Below are positions 2,942 to 21,698 of a stretch of DNA of 32,000 bases, in pieces. Every line of letters starts with the position of its first letter. Position 1 is the first letter of the stretch. Source of the DNA: Nitrosopumilus maritimus SCM1 (GTDB taxonomy: Archaea > Thermoproteota > Nitrososphaeria > Nitrososphaerales > Nitrosopumilaceae); assembly GCF_000018465.1 (NCBI RefSeq), contig NC_010085.1, positions 480,001 to 512,000 of the forward strand, written 5' to 3'. The position numbers and the translations under genes were made by a program. Under the pieces are notes generated by a model. That model was not told where the DNA came from. It did no database searches and worked only from the letters and a program-made list of their open reading frames with translations.

Positions 2942-4270
2942 ATGGCAACTCAAATGACTGCAGCAAGACGCGGTGTTGCAACTGATGAGATGAAACAAGT
3001 TGCAAAAGATGAGGATGTTACTCTTGATTGGTTAATCCCAAAAATTGCAAAGGGCTCTATAATTATTCCAAGTAATAACTGTAGACCTCAAAAAATTCAT
3101 AATGTTGGAATTGGTAAGGGTTTGAAAACCAAAGTAAACGTAAACATTGGAACTTCTACATTAAACGTAAATCTAGAAGAAGAGATTGAAAAAGCAAAAG
3201 TTGCTGTAAAATATCATGCAGATACTATGATGGATCTTAGTGATGGCGGTGATGTAAAACACATAAGAAAAACTCTGTTAGAAACTGCTCCAATTACTTT
3301 TGGCACTGTTCCAATTTATGAAGCATACAACTATGGTGTTGAAGTACACAAAAACCCATTGAATTTAACTGAAGATGATTATCTAAACGCATTTGAAAAC
3401 AATGCTAAAGATGGCGTTGATTATACTACAATTCACTGTGGAATTACAAAAGACATTGCAAAAAGAATTCTAAAGGTTCAGAGATATGGTGGTGTTGTCA
3501 GTAAAGGAGGCACCATAACTGCCGCATGGATGTTAAAACATGACAAAGAAAATCCCTACTTGACTCATTATGATTATCTTGTGGAGATGGCAAAAAAATA
3601 TGATGTGACTTTTAGCCTTGGAGATGCTCTTAGGCCAGGCTCAATTTTGGACTCTCATGATGAATTACAAGTTCAAGAAATGATTAACATCTCTCAGCTA
3701 ACAAAACGTGCACATGAACAAGATGTTCAAGTGATGGTTGAAGGTCCAGGCCATGTACCATTAAACGAAGTTGCAGCAAATGTTAGACTGGCAAAGTCTT
3801 TGATTGGAGATGTTCCATATTATGTTCTAGGACCTTTAGTAACAGATGTTGCATCTGGACATGATCATATTGCAAGTGCAATTGGTGCCGCTGTATCTGC
3901 AAGTGAAGGTGTTGATCTTTTGTGTTATCTTACTCCTTCAGAACATCTTGCATTACCAAACGCTGAAGAAGTAAAGGCTGGATTAATTGCATATCGAATT
4001 GCAGCACATGCAGGTGATCTTGTAAAAATTCGTGATAAAGCGATCAAATGGGATATGGAGATGACTGAAGCTCGACGTACACTAGATTGGGAAAAACAAC
4101 TTGCATTGTCTATTGATCCTGAAGAAGCTGCTAAAATTCACAGTAGAACAGGCCAACACCCTGGCAATAATGTTCCTTGTACTATGTGCGGAGGTGCATG
4201 TGTTTACATGATGTTGCCTCAACAAAAAAAATACGAGAAAGAAAACGAAAACCTACAACAAATTGAATAA
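2942..4270 (+). CDS. thiC: phosphomethylpyrimidine synthase ThiC (radical SAM)
   Basis: The ORF-track frame starts at TTG 2909. The first ATG at 2942 gives MATQMTAARRGVATDEM.., a typical ThiC N-terminus. The ThiC-like sequence runs the full length and includes the C-terminal Cys triad CTMCGGAC. Confidence 0.93.
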   Translation: MATQMTAARRGVATDEMKQVAKDEDVTLDWLIPKIAKGSIIIPSNNCRPQKIHNVGIGKGLKTKVNVNIGTSTLNVNLEEEIEKAKVAVKYHADTMMDLSDGGDVKHIRKTLLETAPITFGTVPIYEAYNYGVEVHKNPLNLTEDDYLNAFENNAKDGVDYTTIHCGITKDIAKRILKVQRYGGVVSKGGTITAAWMLKHDKENPYLTHYDYLVEMAKKYDVTFSLGDALRPGSILDSHDELQVQEMINISQLTKRAHEQDVQVMVEGPGHVPLNEVAANVRLAKSLIGDVPYYVLGPLVTDVASGHDHIASAIGAAVSASEGVDLLCYLTPSEHLALPNAEEVKAGLIAYRIAAHAGDLVKIRDKAIKWDMEMTEARRTLDWEKQLALSIDPEEAAKIHSRTGQHPGNNVPCTMCGGACVYMMLPQQKKYEKENENLQQIE

Positions 4271-4657
4271 TACTTTGTCAAGACTAGGAACTGTTTCATA
4301 ATTTTTTAATTCCTCAACATTAATCCATTTAAAATCAGAATTTTCCCAATTGAGTTTGATGGTTGGGTTTTTTGCTTCAAATAAAAATGGAAAAATCTTC
4401 CATTCATGATTTTGATATTGTGGTGAATTAACTCTCATCTCTTCAGCTGATTTTAGTAAAGTTATTTCATCTTCTGTAATTCCAACCTCTTCAAATATCT
4501 CGATTTTTGCTCTTTTGAGTGGCTCTTCATTTTTTTCTATAATTCCGCTTATGCCTGCCCACAAACCTTTCATGGTTTTGACGTCAGCACTTCGTTTTAG
4601 AATTAATAATTTTTCATTATCTTTGATAAAAGAAGTAACTATCTTTGTTGAGCGCAT
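4253..4657 (-). CDS. NUDIX hydrolase
   Basis: 134 aa with a Nudix-box-like GIIEKNEEPLKRAKIEIFEEVGI (Gx5Ex7[R->I]EUxEExGU). It lies 5 nt downstream of tyrA on the same strand. Its 3' end overlaps the thiC 3' end by 18 nt (convergent). Confidence 0.8.
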   Translation of the reverse strand: MRSTKIVTSFIKDNEKLLILKRSADVKTMKGLWAGISGIIEKNEEPLKRAKIEIFEEVGITEDEITLLKSAEEMRVNSPQYQNHEWKIFPFLFEAKNPTIKLNWENSDFKWINVEELKNYETVPSLDKVLFNLL

Positions 4658-4662
4658 ATCCG

Positions 4663-5514
4663 TTATTTTTCAACGGCTTTGACCATCTTTGTTAATTTCT
4701 TGTAAGATTCATTGATGTCTGTGTGTTTGGCTAATCTCTCTTGACAGTCTTTGATGTAATTTACTACTTCTTCTGTTTTAGATTCTTGAACATCAGTTAG
4801 TAATCTTCCAATATCTTTCCAAAGCTCTTCTGCTACTCTACGAATTTCTGGATTTGCAATGATTGTTTCAATTAATTCTGGGGATTCTGTCATAATACTT
4901 TCTGCTAATGTTTTTTGAACTCTGAAAGTTGTACCTGACATTTTTTCTGTAAGCAACATTTTTTCGTCTTTTGAAACAATGTTTGCAAAAACTAAATTCA
5001 TTAAATGAGTTAATCCTAAAATAACTGCAATCTTTTTGTCGTGCTCTACTGCATCAATAGTAACAAAGTTTGCTCCTTCAAATAGTGATTTTGTTACCGT
5101 CAATTCTTTTTTTGCATCTTTGATTGGAACTGAAATTATGTTTTGACCTTTGATTGTTTTTACACCTGGTCCAAACATTGGATGTATGCATATTGGATTG
5201 ATTTTTGCAGGCATTTTTGATAGTGCTGAAACAACTTTGGATTTTTCAGATGAAATTTCTATGAGATATGTACCTCGTTTCATTTCTTTTGCAATTAGTC
5301 TGATAATCTCTGGTGTTCTTCTTGTAGGTGTACATAATACAACATAATCTGCTTTGAGAATTGCACCTACTAGAGACTCTGCTTGTATGATTCCTTTGCC
5401 TGGAATTTTATTTTCTGAATCAAAACCTGTTACTTCGAATCCTTTATCTGCAAAATATTTGGCAAACCATTGTCCCATTTGCCCTCCTGCACCAATAACT
5501 GTGACTTTTTTCAT
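4663..5514 (-). CDS. tyrA: prephenate dehydrogenase
   Basis: 283 aa with the N-terminal Rossmann motif VTVIGAGGQMGQWFAKYF. It has a 4-nt overlap with the upstream chorismate mutase/aminotransferase gene and sits in the aromatic pathway string. Confidence 0.85.
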   Translation of the reverse strand: MKKVTVIGAGGQMGQWFAKYFADKGFEVTGFDSENKIPGKGIIQAESLVGAILKADYVVLCTPTRRTPEIIRLIAKEMKRGTYLIEISSEKSKVVSALSKMPAKINPICIHPMFGPGVKTIKGQNIISVPIKDAKKELTVTKSLFEGANFVTIDAVEHDKKIAVILGLTHLMNLVFANIVSKDEKMLLTEKMSGTTFRVQKTLAESIMTESPELIETIIANPEIRRVAEELWKDIGRLLTDVQESKTEEVVNYIKDCQERLAKHTDINESYKKLTKMVKAVEK

Positions 5515-6881
5515 TGATCTTCACTCATAATCTCCTTTAGTATATTCATTCCTTCAATTAGTGTCTTCTCGTCTTGGCATGCAGAAATTCTGATGAAATT
5601 TTTATAATCTCCAAATCCTTCTCCTGGAGCCACTGCCAAACCTCTTTCCAATATGTTATTTGCAAACTGAACTCCGTCAAATCCTTCTTTATTGACTCTA
5701 GCAAAGATGTACATTGCGCCATCTGGAACTATAATATCTAAATTCATTTCATTTGCTTTTTGAATCAATACATCCAGTCTGCTTTGGACTGTTTTATTAT
5801 TGTTGGATGTATCTGCTTCTAATGCCTTCATGGCAATGTATTGTATTGGTTCTGATACATTTGTCAGACACAATGCTTCTAATTTTGACATCTTTTCAAT
5901 AACATTTGCATCTGCAATTGCATATCCTATTCTAAATCCTGTCATTGCATGTGACTTTGAAAATGATTGTGTTACAATACTTTTTTCATAATTGTAACTC
6001 AAGATACTCTTCCAACTTGATTTTACATATTCTGAATAAATCTCGTCACTTAATACATAGAGGTTGTTCTTTTTTGCAATTTCAATAATCTGATCTTGTA
6101 ATTTTTCTGGAAGAATTTTTCCTGTTGGATTGTTTGGATAATTCAGAACAATCATTTTTGTATTTGAGTTAATTGTATTTTGAATTTGTTCTATAGAAGG
6201 TTCCCACTTATTTTCAAAAGATGTGTTTATTGTTCTAACTTTGATTCCTGAATTTAACGCACAATCTTTGTAGGCTGGCCATGCAGGCTCAATTACGACT
6301 ATTTCATCACCTGGATTTAGGAGTGTAGTGATTGCTGTAAAGATTGAGAATCTGGCACCTGGACTAACTATGATATTTTCTTGAGATACATTTGCATTGA
6401 ATTTTTTATTTACATGTTTTGCTAATGCTTCTCTAAAAATTGGCATTCCTTTTGCTTGACCGTATTTTAGAAATCCTTTATCATACACTTCCTCTAATGC
6501 ATCTTTTACAATTGTTGGTGGTAAAAAGTCAGGCTCCCCTACTTCCATATGGATAATATTTTTTCCTTGTTGCTCCAATTCTTTAGCTTTAAGAAATATT
6601 GAAAGATGAGTCTGTTTATTTGATGATTGAACTTTGATTGATTCATTTAATAGAAAATTCAAAAACTTTGTAGCAATTTTTTCATCTAATCCAATCTCTT
6701 GACCTAGTGAAATCACCTTTTCTCTAAGATTATCTTCACGTGATTCATCAGTTACTCCTTTACCAATGTTTTTCTTTACTTCTCCAATCTGTTTTGCAAT
6801 GTCTGTTCTATCTTTGAGCAGCTTTATCATTTGAAGTGTAACTTCGTCCATCTTATTTCGTAAGTCGTTGATATCTGACAT
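5511..6881 (-). CDS. fusion protein: AroQ-type chorismate mutase (N-terminal ~90 aa) + class I pyridoxal-phosphate aminotransferase
   Basis: The N-terminus LRNKMDEVTLQMIKLLKDRTDIAKQIGEVKK...SREDNLREKV is chorismate-mutase-like. The remainder carries the aminotransferase class I motifs NYPNNPTGK and SFSKSHAMTGFRIGY. Confidence 0.85.
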   Translation of the reverse strand: MSDINDLRNKMDEVTLQMIKLLKDRTDIAKQIGEVKKNIGKGVTDESREDNLREKVISLGQEIGLDEKIATKFLNFLLNESIKVQSSNKQTHLSIFLKAKELEQQGKNIIHMEVGEPDFLPPTIVKDALEEVYDKGFLKYGQAKGMPIFREALAKHVNKKFNANVSQENIIVSPGARFSIFTAITTLLNPGDEIVVIEPAWPAYKDCALNSGIKVRTINTSFENKWEPSIEQIQNTINSNTKMIVLNYPNNPTGKILPEKLQDQIIEIAKKNNLYVLSDEIYSEYVKSSWKSILSYNYEKSIVTQSFSKSHAMTGFRIGYAIADANVIEKMSKLEALCLTNVSEPIQYIAMKALEADTSNNNKTVQSRLDVLIQKANEMNLDIIVPDGAMYIFARVNKEGFDGVQFANNILERGLAVAPGEGFGDYKNFIRISACQDEKTLIEGMNILKEIMSEDQ

Positions 6882-16618: not shown

Positions 16619-19099
16619 ATGAAAAATATTGTCTTTCTGAGTTTTTTGATATTTTTTGTAATGTCTTTTACTCTTGTTGATGTATATGGGCAATCTGATA
16701 ATGAACAATCTTCTGAAATAGTTAGCTGTACTGAAGGTTATGAACTAGTTTCCAAACCTTCTGGTGATTCTTCGATATGTGTGAAATCCTCAAGTCTTGA
16801 GAATTTTCTTGATAGAGGATACACACTTGCTACTTCAACACAAGAGAATCTACGTGTTGGATTGTTATTTTCAACCTCTGGTGATGCCTCAACATATGGA
16901 CTTGAAAGTCAACATGCTGCACTAATTGCTATTGATGATTTCAATGAATATTTGAAATACATTGAAAATGAGCAAATAATCTTAGTTCCTGAGATAGTTT
17001 CTCTCAAAATTGATCCTGAACATACTCTGGAACAAGTAAAAAGAATGCATCTTGATGGAGTAGATGTTTTCATTGGACCTGACACAAGTGCAGAACTTGA
17101 ATTTATGAAATCTTATGTTGATTCTGAGGGATTATTGGTTATTAGCACATCTTCAACTGCACCATCTTTGGCAATCGAAGATAATATTTTCCGACTTGTT
17201 CCTGATGACACACATCAGACTCGATTACTTGCCCTTCTTGCAGAATCTGCCGGCAGTCCTACTGTGTTTCTTTTAGTTCGTGATGATACATGGGGTAATG
17301 ATTTTGCAAGTGCAATTGAAGAATATTATTCAGGAAATGTTTCTATAATACATTATGATCCTGTGTCTCCTCTCTATGAACAAACTTTACAACAATTATC
17401 TGAATCAATTACCGCAGAGATAACTGCCTCAGAAATAACTACCTCCGATTTTAGAGTTGGTATGATTGGCTTTGGTGAATCTGCTGAATTTTTATCTCGC
17501 GCAACTCAATTTGATATACTTGATGATGTGATATGGTTTGGAACTGATTTTACTGCAAATGAGAAAAAAATAACTGAAAATGAAAAAGCCGTTGAATTTG
17601 CACAAAATGTTTCATTTAAAGCGCTTCAGTTTTCAGCTGATATTGAAAGTACTGCTTATCAAGAAATTGAAACAAAACTTTTTGGAAAATTAGGATACTT
17701 ACCAGACATTTATGCATTTACTGCATATGATGCTGTATGGATATTGGGCTTGAGTATGTTAGATGCAGCAAGCACTAATCCAAATGATTTAGCATTAGAA
17801 ATTCCATCTACTATCACTTCTTACAATGGCGCTCTGGGAAATTTGGAATTAAACGACGCTGGTGATTTAGTCTCTGATAATTATGCTGTTTGGTCTATTG
17901 TGGATGGTGCTTGGTACAAAGGCAATTATGCAAAAAATATGGAATCTGGGATAATAGAACTTGTTGAAACTGATTTAGAAGAATTGGCTACTGACGAAAC
18001 TATTTTGGAAAAATCCGCCCCTCCTGCAGATGATGAGATTCCTATAGCACAACCTTCTACTATAGATGATGAGATTCCTATAACACAACCATCTACTGCA
18101 TATGACGAACAATCTATTCTTGTAAACTTGTTAATTGCATTGATTATTGTGGTATCTGCAATTGCGGGATTTGCCATTTGGAAACTTCGAACTCTATCAA
18201 TAAAGTTGAAGAACTTTATTCATACGCAAAAAATTGAACCAACACCAGAACCCGAACCAACACCAGAACCTGAACCAACACCAGAACCTGAACCAACACC
18301 AGAACCTGAACCAACACCAGAACCTGAACCAACACCAGAACCTGAACCAACACCAGAACCTGAACCAACACCAGAACCTGAACCAACACCAGAACCTGAA
18401 CCAACACCAGAACCTGAACCAACACCAGAACCTGAACCAACACCAGAACCTGAACCAACACCAGAACCTGAACCAACACCAGAACCTGAACCAACACCAG
18501 AACCTGAACCAACACCAGAACCTGAACCAACACCAGAACCTGAACCAACACCAGAACCTGAACCAACACCAGAACCTGAACCAACACCAGAACCTGAACC
18601 AACACCAGAACCTGAACCAACACCAGAACCTGAACCAACACCAGAACCTGAACCAGTTGAACCCAAAGACTCTGTTAGACTACTGTCTTCTAAGGAAATT
18701 CTCCAAAAATGTATTCAAACACATTCATCACTTATGACTGATAAAGAAATTGATTTTTCAGATTCATCAATCAAAAATGTGAAGTTTGTATCTAATGAAA
18801 AACCAATTTTAGAAATTTTTTCAAATTTAATTCGTGCTTCTCATCATTTGGTTGGCTCTTATGGTCAAATTGAGATTGGTGTAAATGATGATGAGGACAT
18901 TACATTTTTTGTTAAAGATAACGGAAATGGAATTTCAAAAGAAGAACAAGAGAAAGTTTTTGAGCAAAATGATGGTCCTTTAGGATTGATGGGAACCAAA
19001 GAACTAGTTCAAGATATGGGTGGTAAAATTTGGATTGAAAGTGTTTCTTTCCTAGGAACTACTTTTTATTTTTCAATCCCAGTACATCCTAACTCTTAA
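16619..19099 (+). CDS. membrane sensor: signal/anchor + type I periplasmic-binding-protein (LIVBP-like) ectodomain + TM + (TPEPEP)x23 linker + HATPase_c (GHKL) domain, with no recognisable HisKA/DHp
   Basis: 826 aa with a hydrophobic N-terminus. [32 protein letters not shown] is PBP type I-like. The TM segment is [22 protein letters not shown]. Residues 542-679 are pure TPEPEP. The C-terminus has an N-box FSNLIRAS, G1 DNGNGIS and G2 [12 protein letters not shown]. Confidence 0.8.
18029..18100 (+). repeat. 36-bp in-frame tandem duplication ([12 protein letters not shown] / [12 protein letters not shown]) in the juxtamembrane ectodomain stalk
   Basis: The two units, 18029-18064 and 18065-18100, differ at a few bases. 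Confidence 0.8.
18242..18655 (+). repeat. 18-bp tandem repeat x23 (acaccagaacctgaacca = TPEPEP), in frame within the sensor gene
   Basis: 414 bp divided by 18 gives 23 units. By eye the only deviation is ccc instead of cct in the first unit (18251-18253). Confidence 0.97.
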
Positions 19100-19164: not shown

Positions 19165-19548
19165 TTACATTGGAGGCAATTCTGTCTTTTTGTCATGTCC
19201 TCCAGAGCCGAATTTACAGTAAAAGCATAATTCTGACTCCATGTACTTTAGTTGCTCAACTTGAATGGCGCCAAGTTTCAGTGCGATTTTTGTGAGAATT
19301 TTGTACTTTAATGGCATTGCTGGAATTACCTCATCCATGTATACTCTGTAATGATCGGGACAAAATTTGAGCGTGACTTTGGCAGGTTCTTTACCCTTCT
19401 CGTTTACTTGTTTTGTAAAGTTGATCTGCTCTCGTATGTATTCGTGTTTTGGGCATGGACAGTCTTTTCCACCTGGGTGTTTGTATGCAGGTGTGTTCTT
19501 CCAGTCAAAATCTGGAAACTCTTTCTCAAAGTCGTCCATGTGATCCAT
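19165..19548 (-). CDS. hypothetical Cys/His-rich protein (127 aa from first ATG)
   Basis: The ORF-track frame begins at TTG 19578. ATG 19548 gives MDHMDDFEKEFPDFDW... The protein contains CPCPKHEY, CPDH and CFYCKFGSGGH clusters and no domain I recognise. It is divergent from the first repeat-protein gene. Confidence 0.55.
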   Translation of the reverse strand: MDHMDDFEKEFPDFDWKNTPAYKHPGGKDCPCPKHEYIREQINFTKQVNEKGKEPAKVTLKFCPDHYRVYMDEVIPAMPLKYKILTKIALKLGAIQVEQLKYMESELCFYCKFGSGGHDKKTELPPM

Positions 19549-19634
19549 TAGCAATTTGTGCTTATAAAACTTGATCAAACTTGTCTATGGTAATAACCCA
19601 AATGCTCATAAACCCCAGATTATCCATCCAGTTC

Positions 19635-20318
19635 ATGGCAGCTGCTAAAAAGCAAACTAAAAAAGATCTTGAAGACAAGATTGCCGAATTAGAAGCAAAG
19701 CTAAACTCACTTTCATCTCAGCTTTCAAAACCAGCTGAAGTGAAACCTGCTGAGACAAAACCAGCTGAAGTGAAACCTGCTGAGACAAAACCTGCTGAGA
19801 CAAAACCTGCAGAAACTAAACCAGCTGAGACAAAACCAGCTGAAACTGCAAAACCAAAACCAACCTTGCCAAAAGGTATGGGTGAAAAACCAGCAGAAGC
19901 TCCTAAACCCGAGGAAGCTCCAAAACCAGCTGAGACAACCGCACAACCTCCAGCAACAGTACAAGATGCTTTAGAGGCCGCATACTATGATGCTCCAATG
20001 ACTGACTTCCATCAGTATAGAGCAAAAGTAACAGGTTATTCTCCAGCTCCTAACAGATACTTTGTTAGAATGACTGCTCCTGTTGGTAAAGTTCCAACAT
20101 CTGATTGGAATCAACAAAAAGCATCAGTCACTGGTTACACAGCATGTTCAAACCAATACTATGCAACAAGAGCAAGATTGGCATATCATCCTGCTGACAA
20201 AAGATTTGGAACTTTTAGTGGAGTTAACATGACTGTTGAAGGCGTTGCTGCACAAGCACAACAAGCACCAACACCAGAACCACCAAAACCAAAAGGTACA
20301 CTTCCAAAAGGTTTCTAA
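19635..20318 (+). CDS. disordered repeat protein, paralog A (KPAE[TV] x8, two [ST]LPKG[FM] motifs, ~85-aa Tyr/Thr-rich core)
   Basis: The ORF-track frame starts at TTG 19581. ATG 19635 gives MAAAKKQTKKDLEDKIAELEAKL, which aligns with the MAAKRKASTKKDLEAKIAELEAKL start of paralog B. The protein ends KPKGTLPKGF-stop. Confidence 0.75.
   Translation: MAAAKKQTKKDLEDKIAELEAKLNSLSSQLSKPAEVKPAETKPAEVKPAETKPAETKPAETKPAETKPAETAKPKPTLPKGMGEKPAEAPKPEEAPKPAETTAQPPATVQDALEAAYYDAPMTDFHQYRAKVTGYSPAPNRYFVRMTAPVGKVPTSDWNQQKASVTGYTACSNQYYATRARLAYHPADKRFGTFSGVNMTVEGVAAQAQQAPTPEPPKPKGTLPKGF
19728..19847 (+). repeat. 15-bp coding tandem repeat x8 (KPAEV/KPAET)
   Basis: aaaccagctgaagtg and aaacctgctgagaca type units run from 19728 to 19847. 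Confidence 0.9.
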
Positions 20319-20386: not shown

Positions 20387-20578
20387 ATGCCTCCAAAAAC
20401 TATCTGTCCTAATTGTAAACAAAACGAATGGCTTGAAAATCGAGAACTAGGTTATCTTCCAAGAGTGATTAAATTGGATAATGGACAATATGCTGCTGAT
20501 ACTGAAAATGGAACTCATGTGCGAATATGGAGATGTAACAATTGCATGTATGTAATGCAATTTTGGGAACCAGATTAG
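20387..20578 (+). CDS. small zinc-ribbon protein (63 aa), function unknown
   Basis: It has CPNC near the N-terminus and CNNC near the C-terminus. It sits between the two repeat-protein paralogs. Confidence 0.6.
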   Translation: MPPKTICPNCKQNEWLENRELGYLPRVIKLDNGQYAADTENGTHVRIWRCNNCMYVMQFWEPD

Positions 20579-20702: not shown

Positions 20703-21698
20703 ATGGCAGCAAAGCGAAAAGCAAGTACAAAAAAAGATCTTGAAGCAAAGATCGCCGAACTCGAAGCAAAACTATCTAAACTATCATCAGAAATTGATGC
20801 CAAACCTGCTGAGACAAAACCAGCTGAAGTGAAACCTGCTGAGACAAAACCAGCTGAAGTGAAACCTGCTGAGACAAAACCAGCTGAAGTGAAACCTGCT
20901 GAGACAAAACCTGCAGAAACTAAACCAGCTGAGACAAAACCAGCTGAAACTGCAAAACCAAAACCAACCTTGCCAAAAGGTATGGGTGAAAAACCAGCAG
21001 AAGCTCCTAAACCAGAGGAATCTCCAAAACCAGCTGAGACAACAGCACAACCTCCAGCAACTCCTAATGAAGCTCTAGAATCTGCATACTATGATGCTCC
21101 AATGACTGACTTCCATCAGTATAGAGCAAAAGTAACAGGTTATTCTCCAGCTCCTAACAGATACTTTGTTAGAATGACTGCTCCTGTTGGTAAAGTTCCA
21201 ACATCTGATTGGAATCAACAAAAAGCATCAGTCACTGGTTACACAGCATGTTCAAACCAATACTATGCAACAAGAGCAAGATTGGCATATCATCCTGCTG
21301 ACAAAAGATTTGGAACTTTTAGTGGAGTTAACATGAGTTTTGATGGTGTTCAAATTAAAGAACAAACACAACAAGCACCTCCACCACCTCCAGAACCTGC
21401 AAAACCAAAAGGTACACTTCCAAAAGGAATGGGTGATGCACCTCAACCTCAAACTACTGCAAGTAGTGGAGATGGAAAATCAAGACAAGAACAACTAGAA
21501 GAGTACGAAAAAGATTACTTGCAAAGAATTGAACAAGAAAAAGCAGAACGTGAACAAGCTTACCAAGAAGCACTTGAAGCTGAAGTTGAAGCAAGAGCTA
21601 AACAAACACGAGGTAGCTTGCCAAAAGGTTTTGAACCCGCACCGGAACCAGAACCAGAACCTGCAAAACCAAAAGGTACACTTCCAAAAGGTTTCTGA
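20703..21698 (+). CDS. disordered repeat protein, paralog B (KPAE[TV] x10, four [ST]LPKG[FM] motifs, same core, extra charged helix)
   Basis: 331 aa with an ATG start. It has the same architecture as 19635..20318, plus the insertion SRQEQLEEYEKDYLQRIEQEKAEREQAYQEALEAEVEARAK. It ends KPKGTLPKGF-stop. Confidence 0.8.
   Translation: MAAKRKASTKKDLEAKIAELEAKLSKLSSEIDAKPAETKPAEVKPAETKPAEVKPAETKPAEVKPAETKPAETKPAETKPAETAKPKPTLPKGMGEKPAEAPKPEESPKPAETTAQPPATPNEALESAYYDAPMTDFHQYRAKVTGYSPAPNRYFVRMTAPVGKVPTSDWNQQKASVTGYTACSNQYYATRARLAYHPADKRFGTFSGVNMSFDGVQIKEQTQQAPPPPPEPAKPKGTLPKGMGDAPQPQTTASSGDGKSRQEQLEEYEKDYLQRIEQEKAEREQAYQEALEAEVEARAKQTRGSLPKGFEPAPEPEPEPAKPKGTLPKGF
20802..20951 (+). repeat. 15-bp coding tandem repeat x10 (KPAET/KPAEV)
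   Basis: These are the same unit types as at 19728-19847, with two more copies. Confidence 0.9.

Follow-up and report, generated by a model that had tools for sequence, protein, structure and literature searches.

An open reading frame (ORF) in a 32,000-nucleotide stretch of Nitrosopumilus maritimus SCM1 DNA (contig NC_010085.1, positions 480,001 to 512,000; hereafter the window) was found to encode a membrane protein that is specific to a small marine clade of Nitrosopumilus. We have high confidence in its anatomy: a binding domain lies outside the cell, and a histidine-kinase catalytic and ATP-binding (CA) domain, lacking the dimerisation and histidine-phosphotransfer (DHp) domain, is carried inside on a tandem repeat. 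From the N- to the C-terminus the protein consists of an N-terminal anchor, a WING-49 domain, a LivJ-type binding domain, an acidic stalk, a transmembrane (TM) helix, the repeat (TPEPEP)23 and the CA domain (Table 1). This is the layout that the original prediction had read from the translation, and the ORF, repeat and domain calls agree with it. Hydropathy reveals two hydrophobic segments only, at residues 1-20 and 499-521, and the net charge of -5 ahead of the TM helix and +4 behind it places the repeat and the CA domain in the cytoplasm. The DHp-CA pair is the defining feature of histidine kinases. In this protein the CA domain is split from any DHp, tethered to a receptor and under selection after the loss of catalytic residues.

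The DHp domain with its H-box is absent and there is physically no room for one. No HisKA-type family matched the protein in Pfam at E<=1, and the matches to NCBIfam kinase equivalogs begin only at residue ~685-699, so that they cover the portion of these models behind the DHp. The same Pfam search detected HisKA in the paralogs P0134 (E 1.9e-13) and P0131 (E 7e-12), which shows that a DHp in the window protein would have been picked up. These paralogs belong to the group P0131-P0137, whose members are ordinary dCache/PAS-HAMP-HisKA-HATPase_c kinases and are 50-53% identical to the window protein in the CA domain (HMMER, last 151 residues as query). Alignment shows that the canonical paralogs carry EFVAMITHDLKQPL ('ITHDLKQPL') and a hairpin of ~70 residues directly before 'EELSSKEIL'; in the window protein the corresponding 'LLSSKEIL' starts 9 residues past the repeat. 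Between the TM helix and strand beta-1 of the CA domain there is a juxtamembrane stretch of 17 residues, the repeat and a further ~11 residues. When profiles of the family and of the canonical kinases were compared with hhalign (probability 100%), family columns 28-169 paired with canonical columns 95-248, which left 94 DHp columns unpaired on the canonical side and 27 juxtamembrane and pre-CA columns unpaired on the family side; the juxtamembrane segment pairs with no part of the canonical DHp. Furthermore, the AlphaFold2 model of residues 676-826 (predicted local distance difference test score, pLDDT, 88; predicted template-modelling score, pTM, 0.84) has beta-1 beginning at fragment residue 12 and the complete topology of a CA domain.

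The missing DHp and H-box of the original prediction are thus confirmed by Pfam, NCBIfam, hhalign and the structural model. The original prediction had also raised the question of whether orthologs possess a DHp where the repeat is absent. No ortholog with an intact DHp was found among 221 homologs of the binding domain, 1.84 billion representative proteins and 185,579 genomes scanned at the species level (one genome per species). Two other histidines were considered as phospho-acceptors and rejected. His702 (QTHSSL) sits in helix alpha-1 of the CA domain, and the equivalent 'KTHSP' is kept in paralogs that have their own H-box. His535 belongs to the juxtamembrane motif (K/R)LK(N/D)S.H(I/M).K, which is common to all relatives with the binding domain and TM helix, including those with other tails; this histidine is missing in locus L001 and protein P0004.

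The CA domain is complete in fold. HATPase_c (PF02518) was matched by Pfam at residues 730-822 with an E-value of 9.8e-14, at 52 bits in the window protein against 90-98 bits in the paralogs. The model has the Bergerat fold of the HATPase_c domain of sensor histidine kinases, and Foldseek aligned it end to end with the isolated CA domain of ThkA, and also with HK853 and ZraS, at TM-scores of 0.83-0.87; WalK and DivL match as well. No match to HATPase_c_2, as in anti-sigma GHKL kinases of the SpoIIAB/RsbW type, was obtained from Pfam, and genuine HisKA kinases, not anti-sigma kinases, are the nearest CA relatives at 50% identity. The domain was presumably captured from an ordinary dCache-HAMP-HisKA-HATPase_c kinase, as its sequence similarity suggests.

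The nucleotide-binding motifs are largely lost. Of the N-box Asn, G1, F-box and G2 elements only G1 is kept, together with the G3 Thr, which is invariant across the family. The canonical N-box 'NLIQNAHDF' reads 'NLIRASHHL' in the window protein, and across the family the first N-box Asn is found as N, N, N, P, T or T and the Mg2+-binding Asn position as A, A, A, T, C or N. All family members have a deletion of 9-13 residues in which the last part of the F-box, the ATP lid and the G2 loop ('GGTGLGL') are lost. As an example, the canonical KKYGQVESSATRKYGGTGLGL is replaced by 'EQNDGPLGL' in the window protein and by 'IDDSSNL' in L003, and the model has no secondary structure in the remnant (fragment residues 106-115). 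The intact N, G1 and G2 boxes that had been read from the sequence therefore do not hold, as Ala740 stands for the Asn, the lid and G2 are deleted and G1 alone is retained. Such drift at positions that contact Mg-ATP would follow from a loss of catalysis already in the common ancestor. Judged from these substitutions, the CA domain is likely to be non-catalytic; the protein probably cannot autophosphorylate, and most likely neither binds nor hydrolyses ATP productively. Since the defining DHp with a phospho-acceptor His just N-terminal of the CA domain is missing and the nucleotide motifs are not intact, the protein does not belong to the sensor histidine kinase family.

The tail is not decaying and the CA fold is under purifying selection. 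The ratios of nonsynonymous to synonymous substitution rates (dN/dS; Nei-Gojobori method, window against L007 and against L008 in that order) are 0.23 and 0.13 for the CA domain (binomial p = 1.5e-3 and 1.3e-7 against neutrality) and 0.34 and 0.32 for the binding domain. The stalk and TM helix, at 0.66 and 0.45, are the least constrained part, and the flanking genes lie at 0.01-0.05. In the same two comparisons amino acid identity within the protein is highest in the CA domain, at 90-93% against 85-87% for the N-terminal 539 residues, and the neighbouring gene products are 96-98.5% identical. The CA domain is also kept in frame in lineages where dS is saturated (L001, L009) and in relatives down to ~50% identity. 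We noticed that dS of the gene (0.15-0.27) lies below that of its neighbours (0.24-0.63) despite the higher dN; codon bias or recombination might be behind this.

The repeat varies in unit and length among the orthologs. Tandem Repeats Finder reports a period of 18 bp, 23.4 copies and 99% matches in the window, which translates into 140 residues with 50% Pro and a net charge of -47. L007 has 10.6 copies of an 18-bp unit with different codons (~72 residues), L008 has 7.0 copies of a 24-bp unit (EPEPEPTP, 56 residues) and L009 has 29.5 copies of a 12-bp unit (EPTP, ~120 residues), while the linker of P0002 is 19 residues long without a regular array. The length therefore spans 19-140 residues, a 7-fold spread, between conserved flanks. 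Arrays are 96-99% homogeneous within and unlike between lineages, which is a signature of ongoing replication slippage, and the reading frame is intact through the arrays of the window and its orthologs. The repeat had been taken for a rigid rod that may hold the ATPase domain at a distance from the membrane. A linker of such different lengths and units is unconstrained in length, and the repeat is thus a slippage-prone tether tolerant of length change and not a calibrated rod. In addition, a micro-repeat of 15 bp x 2.4 occurs within the binding domain at positions 17410-17445, where L008 has 'EMNPSEMNPS'; the different unit in orthologs indicates that the gene is prone to slippage at several sites.

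The best overall reading of these data is that of a non-catalytic, kinase-derived interaction module on a leash, which in our judgement stands about even between right and wrong. For a conserved but dead CA domain, the most economical role would be protein-protein interaction with its machinery of origin, and such a module, a pseudo-CA domain without catalysis, is probably what has been preserved. A flexible leash of 20-140 residues would keep it at the membrane, from where it could bind, as decoy, recruiter or scaffold, to the DHp or receiver proteins that belong to the canonical two-component systems of the cell. Because a disordered or polyproline-II-type linker of variable length carries no piston or rotation signal, binding of an external ligand would act only via clustering, oligomerisation or local concentration. 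Candidate partners are the paralogous kinases, through their DHp domains, or the REC-only proteins, which are abundant and form 28 of the 33-34 response regulators of Nitrosopumilus; many orphan receiver proteins are encoded by ammonia-oxidising archaea (PMC5847659). The specific role of the CA domain as a decoy or scaffold is proposed tentatively, as a possibility. The narrower version, in which a membrane-tethered decoy resembling Sda or KipI is clustered with its receptor, docks the dead CA domain on DHp/REC partners and switches them between kinase and phosphatase states, would be a new form of two-component cross-regulation, and we regard it as quite unlikely. In such a scheme the leash, with a contour of up to ~40 nm from the polyproline-II rise per residue, would reach through a considerable portion of the cytoplasm of Nitrosopumilus cells, which are ~0.2 micrometres wide.

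Several observations weigh against the interaction module. The G1 motif DNGxGI and the G3 Thr are invariant and some nucleotide binding could survive; in DosS a short ATP lid alone does not prevent ATP binding, although CA domains of this type retain the N-box Asn, Arg and His (PMC10312584). One subclade of the present family (L003/L009) retains the N-box Asn. The overall constraint on the gene is weak, as its dN is 5-10 times that of the neighbours and its dN/dS is ~0.3 against 0.01-0.05. Furthermore, no REC, HisKA or ABC-transporter domain was found in the window ORFs scanned (nearly all of those of at least 100 amino acids and two shorter ones), which agrees with the earlier statement that no response regulator is encoded in the window and means that a partner histidine kinase, REC or HisKA-only gene was not found in these ORFs. 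The mechanism itself is proposed by analogy.

The first two of these points, the invariant G1 and G3 residues and the precedent of DosS, would equally favour a true split kinase, an alternative of similar novelty to the decoy in which the CA domain and the phospho-acceptor reside on different polypeptides. The tethered CA domain would then still be an ATPase and would phosphorylate a separate DHp/HPt-type protein or the DHp of another kinase. A long leash would let it reach such targets, and the fold is complete and confidently modelled. Phosphorylation of DHp domains in trans by isolated CA domains has reportedly been achieved in the two-domain reconstitution of EnvZ and in the Rhodobacter CheA3/CheA4 pair. 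Archaea also encode proteins classified as 'HisKA, no HATPase', although mainly in Archaeoglobi and Methanomicrobia and not in Thaumarchaeota (PMC5847659). However, at the position of the Mg2+-binding Asn the window clade has Ala and relatives have T, C or N, and N(0) of the N-box is also variable (N, P, T). The G2 glycine loop has been deleted or is not conserved, and a candidate substrate gene was not found among the window ORFs scanned. The decayed ATP site makes trans-kinase activity unlikely and we consider the split kinase improbable. Of the degenerate or trans-acting kinase module and the extended rod that the original prediction had offered, the degenerate module fits best, with the N-box Asn lost and the lid and G2 deleted, and the rod does not stand.

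Another account is that of a vestigial tail, in which the binding domain, stalk and TM anchor form the working unit and the Pro/Glu (PE) repeat and CA domain are leftovers of a fusion or deletion, without a role in signalling. Many Nitrosopumilaceae paralogs are indeed binding-domain-only or double-binding-domain proteins without a kinase part, and the binding domain and TM helix are followed by the common juxtamembrane motif in P0003, P0004 and L010, beyond which P0003 ends and P0004 and L010 have other tails. The gene is also fast-evolving relative to its neighbours and the catalytic motifs have decayed. Against this, the most conserved segment of the protein is the very domain said to be left over, its dN/dS of 0.13-0.23 is significantly below 1 and it stays in frame and foldable where dS is saturated; moreover, mis-assembly through the repeat may have produced the alternative tails, as L010 has N in the scaffold there. 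We therefore regard a vestigial tail as unlikely. An assembly or annotation artefact, by which the repeat or the junction of a binding-protein gene with a kinase fragment was made by mis-assembly, is extremely improbable. Short-read metagenome contigs do break, gap or gain a stop right in the repeat (L001, L003, L004, L005, L006), and the perfect 420-bp array of the window exceeds a short read, so that its copy number of 23 is as assembled and could not be checked. But the order of binding domain, TM helix, repeat and CA domain and the identical synteny recur in the complete chromosomes of the metagenome-assembled genomes (MAGs) at L007 and L008 and in L009, the frame is preserved across the arrays and the unit and length differ as real slippage would give. 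The question raised earlier of whether the repeat is artefactual is thus answered by orthologs in complete long-read MAGs, which carry PE/PT repeats. If the preferred interaction module does act as a regulatory decoy or scaffold, it would represent a new principle for two-component signalling and a way into the signalling of ammonia-oxidising archaea, whose networks have hardly been studied. With a vestigial tail, the protein would mainly be an example of domain decay.

Table 1. Features of the receptor gene, with positions in the window.
Feature	Residues	Position	Strand	Basis or remark
Whole ORF, 826 amino acids including the stop codon		16619..19099	+	ORF list
N-terminal hydrophobic signal/anchor	1-24	16619..16690	+	Kyte-Doolittle window 1.94 at residue 1; AlphaFold pLDDT <50
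Small two-Cys N-terminal domain	25-69	16691..16825	+	NCBIfam NF058652 WING-49, E 1.6e-08, 34.5 bits (cut-off 22)
Type I (LivJ/ANF-receptor-like) periplasmic binding protein domain	78-428	16850..17902	+	Pfam, PDB sequence matches, AlphaFold, Foldseek
Acidic disordered stalk	441-498	17939..18112	+	pLDDT <50
Single TM helix	499-521	18113..18181	+	Top hydropathy window of the protein, 2.83 at residue 500
Basic juxtamembrane segment, motif (K/R)LK(N/D)S.H..K		18182..18235	+	Kept in all relatives with periplasmic binding protein domain and TM helix
Tandem repeat (TPEPEP)23, acidic Pro-rich cytoplasmic tether, 140 amino acids		18235..18655	+	Tandem Repeats Finder, direct reading
Complete histidine-kinase CA (HATPase_c) domain without DHp	680-826	18656..19096	+	Pfam, AlphaFold, Foldseek, hhalign
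Ala at the universal GHKL Mg2+-binding Asn of the N-box, codon GCT	740	18836..18838	+	Alignment, codon read
G1 box 'DNGNGI', retained	767-772	18917..18934	+	D-N-G-x-G-I invariant in the family and canonical paralogs
F-box/ATP lid/G2 remnant		18959..18988	+	12-residue deletion against canonical FKKYGQVESSATRKYGGTGLGL (alignment, hhalign gap)

The extracytoplasmic part was assigned with confidence to a fold but not to a ligand. ANF_receptor (PF01094) was matched by Pfam at residues 98-428 (E 1.7e-27, 96.8 bits, cut-off 25.4) and Peripla_BP_6 (PF13458) at residues 78-415 (E 8.6e-18, 65.5 bits, cut-off 31.7), and sequence matches in the PDB include 4mlc and LivJ. In the AlphaFold2 model of residues 1-500 the core has a pLDDT of 85-98 and the two-lobe Venus-flytrap fold of type I periplasmic binding proteins, while the first 33 residues are disordered, as is the stalk. 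Foldseek aligned this model with Leu-bound binding proteins of the LivJ type (TMt 0.75-0.82), and also with binders of aromatic acids, urea and amides and with the Venus-flytrap domains of NPR-C, GABA-B and mGlu receptors, at 13-20% identity throughout. The ligand-binding domain predicted at residues 60-440 is therefore placed in the LivJ cluster, and at this level of identity the sequence and fold searches do not give its ligand class. The small WING-49 domain is modelled as a beta-beta-alpha unit with a pLDDT of 64-85; a literature search on 'WING-49' found no entry. In the stalk, the DDEIPIxQPST duplication was detected by Tandem Repeats Finder as 1.9 copies of 36 bp at positions 18028-18097.

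The ectodomain fold is shared with LivJ/LivK (cluster B, type I) proteins and with the ectodomains of ANF/natriuretic peptide receptors and class-C GPCRs. Natriuretic peptide receptors join a type I binding-protein ectodomain to one TM helix and a catalytically dead kinase-like domain. The window protein differs from them in having an intracellular GHKL fold, not a eukaryotic protein-kinase fold, and no cyclase. It differs from LivJ/LivK in that no ABC-transporter genes lie nearby in the window ORFs scanned, nor adjoin the paralogs P0018 and P0008. The name 'ABC transporter substrate-binding protein', given to P0001 by NCBI, therefore has no support from gene context. Exact database look-ups of P0001 and of the window protein returned no record.

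The closest known counterparts of the intracellular part are the canonical Nitrosopumilus kinases (P0131-P0137 and a 964-amino-acid kinase in L044), whose CA domains have the same order of secondary structure and share the signature 'EELSSKEIL...KTHS...IEIGV...GGKIW.ES...GT.F.F.IP'. They differ in having HisKA with 'ITHDLKQPL' (Pfam E ~1e-12 to 1e-13), an intact N-box Asn and a full F/G2 lid, in having dCache, PAS or HAMP sensors and not a binding-protein domain, and in having no PE repeat. At L044, three dCache/PAS-HAMP-HisKA-HATPase_c kinases were found in a row in a Nitrosopumilus genome. DivL of Caulobacter, whose structure 4q20 is among the Foldseek matches (TM-score 0.82-0.83), provides a precedent for a histidine-kinase fold that has been repurposed for non-catalytic work and serves as a binding or sensing module (PMC4211667). 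However, DivL keeps a DHp, with Tyr for His, in a dimeric PAS-DHp-CA arrangement, whereas the window protein has no DHp and a CA domain on a disordered leash. The archaeal 'HisKA, no HATPase' proteins are likewise incomplete, kinase-like and presumed to be non-enzymatic signalling components (Galperin et al. 2018, PMC5847659), but they are the exact converse, with a DHp and no CA domain, and most of them are cytoplasmic proteins with PAS/GAF domains in Archaeoglobi and Methanomicrobia. The layout of the window protein is not among the classes of that archaeal two-component census, where the converse class alone occurs (PMC5847659). This agrees with the original prediction, to which no described signalling protein of such a layout was known. 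The likeness of the repeat to the (EP)n/(KP)n spacer of TonB and to the EP procyclin of trypanosomes is confined to the alternating Glu-Pro composition. TonB (NF008084) was matched at residues 532-595 as a low-complexity hit to the Pro-rich part of the model (E 2.8e-05, 24 bits, cut-off 315) and Trypan_PARP as a compositional one (35 bits, cut-off 100). The window repeat is cytoplasmic and purely acidic, has no KP half and varies 7-fold in length, and the SHLS anchor, Pro-rich spacer and C-terminal TonB domain that mark the TonB family were not found together in the protein.

Only a few marine lineages of Nitrosopumilus were found to carry the family. An exhaustive HMMER search with the last 151 residues against the representative proteins gave two clusters at E<1e-30, and the next matches were the thaumarchaeal kinases P0131-P0137. 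The species scan found four loci with the binding domain of the family, a TM helix and a repeat, and three of the four have the CA domain. These are NZ_OZ253550 (L007, a complete Nitrosopumilus MAG chromosome, 85% identity), NZ_OZ253671 (L008, a complete chromosome, 87% identity), which encodes the same protein as P0001, and NORP47 (L009, 51% identity). The fourth, L010, has the binding domain, TM helix and repeat followed by a different tail, with N in the scaffold at the repeat; in its ORF (positions 23-2005) the tail is an unrelated one. P0004 (L081, positions 4001-5998) likewise contains the shared binding domain, TM helix, juxtamembrane motif and PE repeat, followed by the anchor-like module GGGCLIATAAYG, which was also observed at the end of the double-binding-domain protein P0033. 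In P0004 and L010 the tail has either truly been exchanged at the repeat, or the assembly went wrong across it.

Interrupted ORFs were seen among the relatives, with N gaps or a stop inside the PE repeat in L001, L003 and L004-L006. An apparent family of stand-alone CA proteins (HATPase_c only, 119-158 amino acids) was rejected, as all four members that were traced (P0121, P0122, P0123 and P0127) proved to be gene-calling artefacts. Where short-read assembly fails at the array, gene callers emit false stand-alone 'histidine kinase' ORFs (P0121-P0123). This creates an annotation problem, because short-read assemblies break the gene at the repeat and yield spurious stand-alone 'kinase' ORFs, and relatives carry labels such as 'ABC transporter substrate-binding protein' or 'signal transduction histidine kinase'. 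The artefacts traced also include one caused by a frameshift in an ordinary PAS kinase at L002, a Nitrosopumilaceae locus located by amoC, amoA and amoB, where a PAS-DHp-CA kinase is split over two overlapping frames (positions 5100-6429). Its H-box reads 'MTVAKESQVPI' against the canonical 'AMITHDLKQPL', with Lys for the phospho-acceptor His, and its CA motifs are intact. This gene may encode another type of pseudo-kinase, or it may be a pseudogene.

The receptor gene lies in the window among genes for shikimate, thiamine and menaquinone biosynthesis, AhpC and an aquaporin. Synteny is conserved in the window clade and comprises a radical-SAM Mqn enzyme, UbiD, the receptor gene, a convergent Cys-rich gene of 137 amino acids, the KPAET paralogs, AhpC and MIP. 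The Cys-rich protein (19165-19578, minus strand) has no Pfam match and is 98.5% conserved, and its gene is always convergent with the receptor gene in this clade (L004, L005, L007, L008). The KPAET genes (19581-20318 and 20703-21698, plus strand) are tandem paralogs with 15-bp repeats and a recurring 'PKGTLPKGF' that match no Pfam family. An ORF of 63 amino acids with a CxxC...CxxC pattern (20387-20578, plus strand) follows the first KPAET gene, and in L004 it was found after both copies. The KPAET cluster is kept in L004, L007 and L008, where it is 87-90% identical compared with 96-98% for the housekeeping neighbours.

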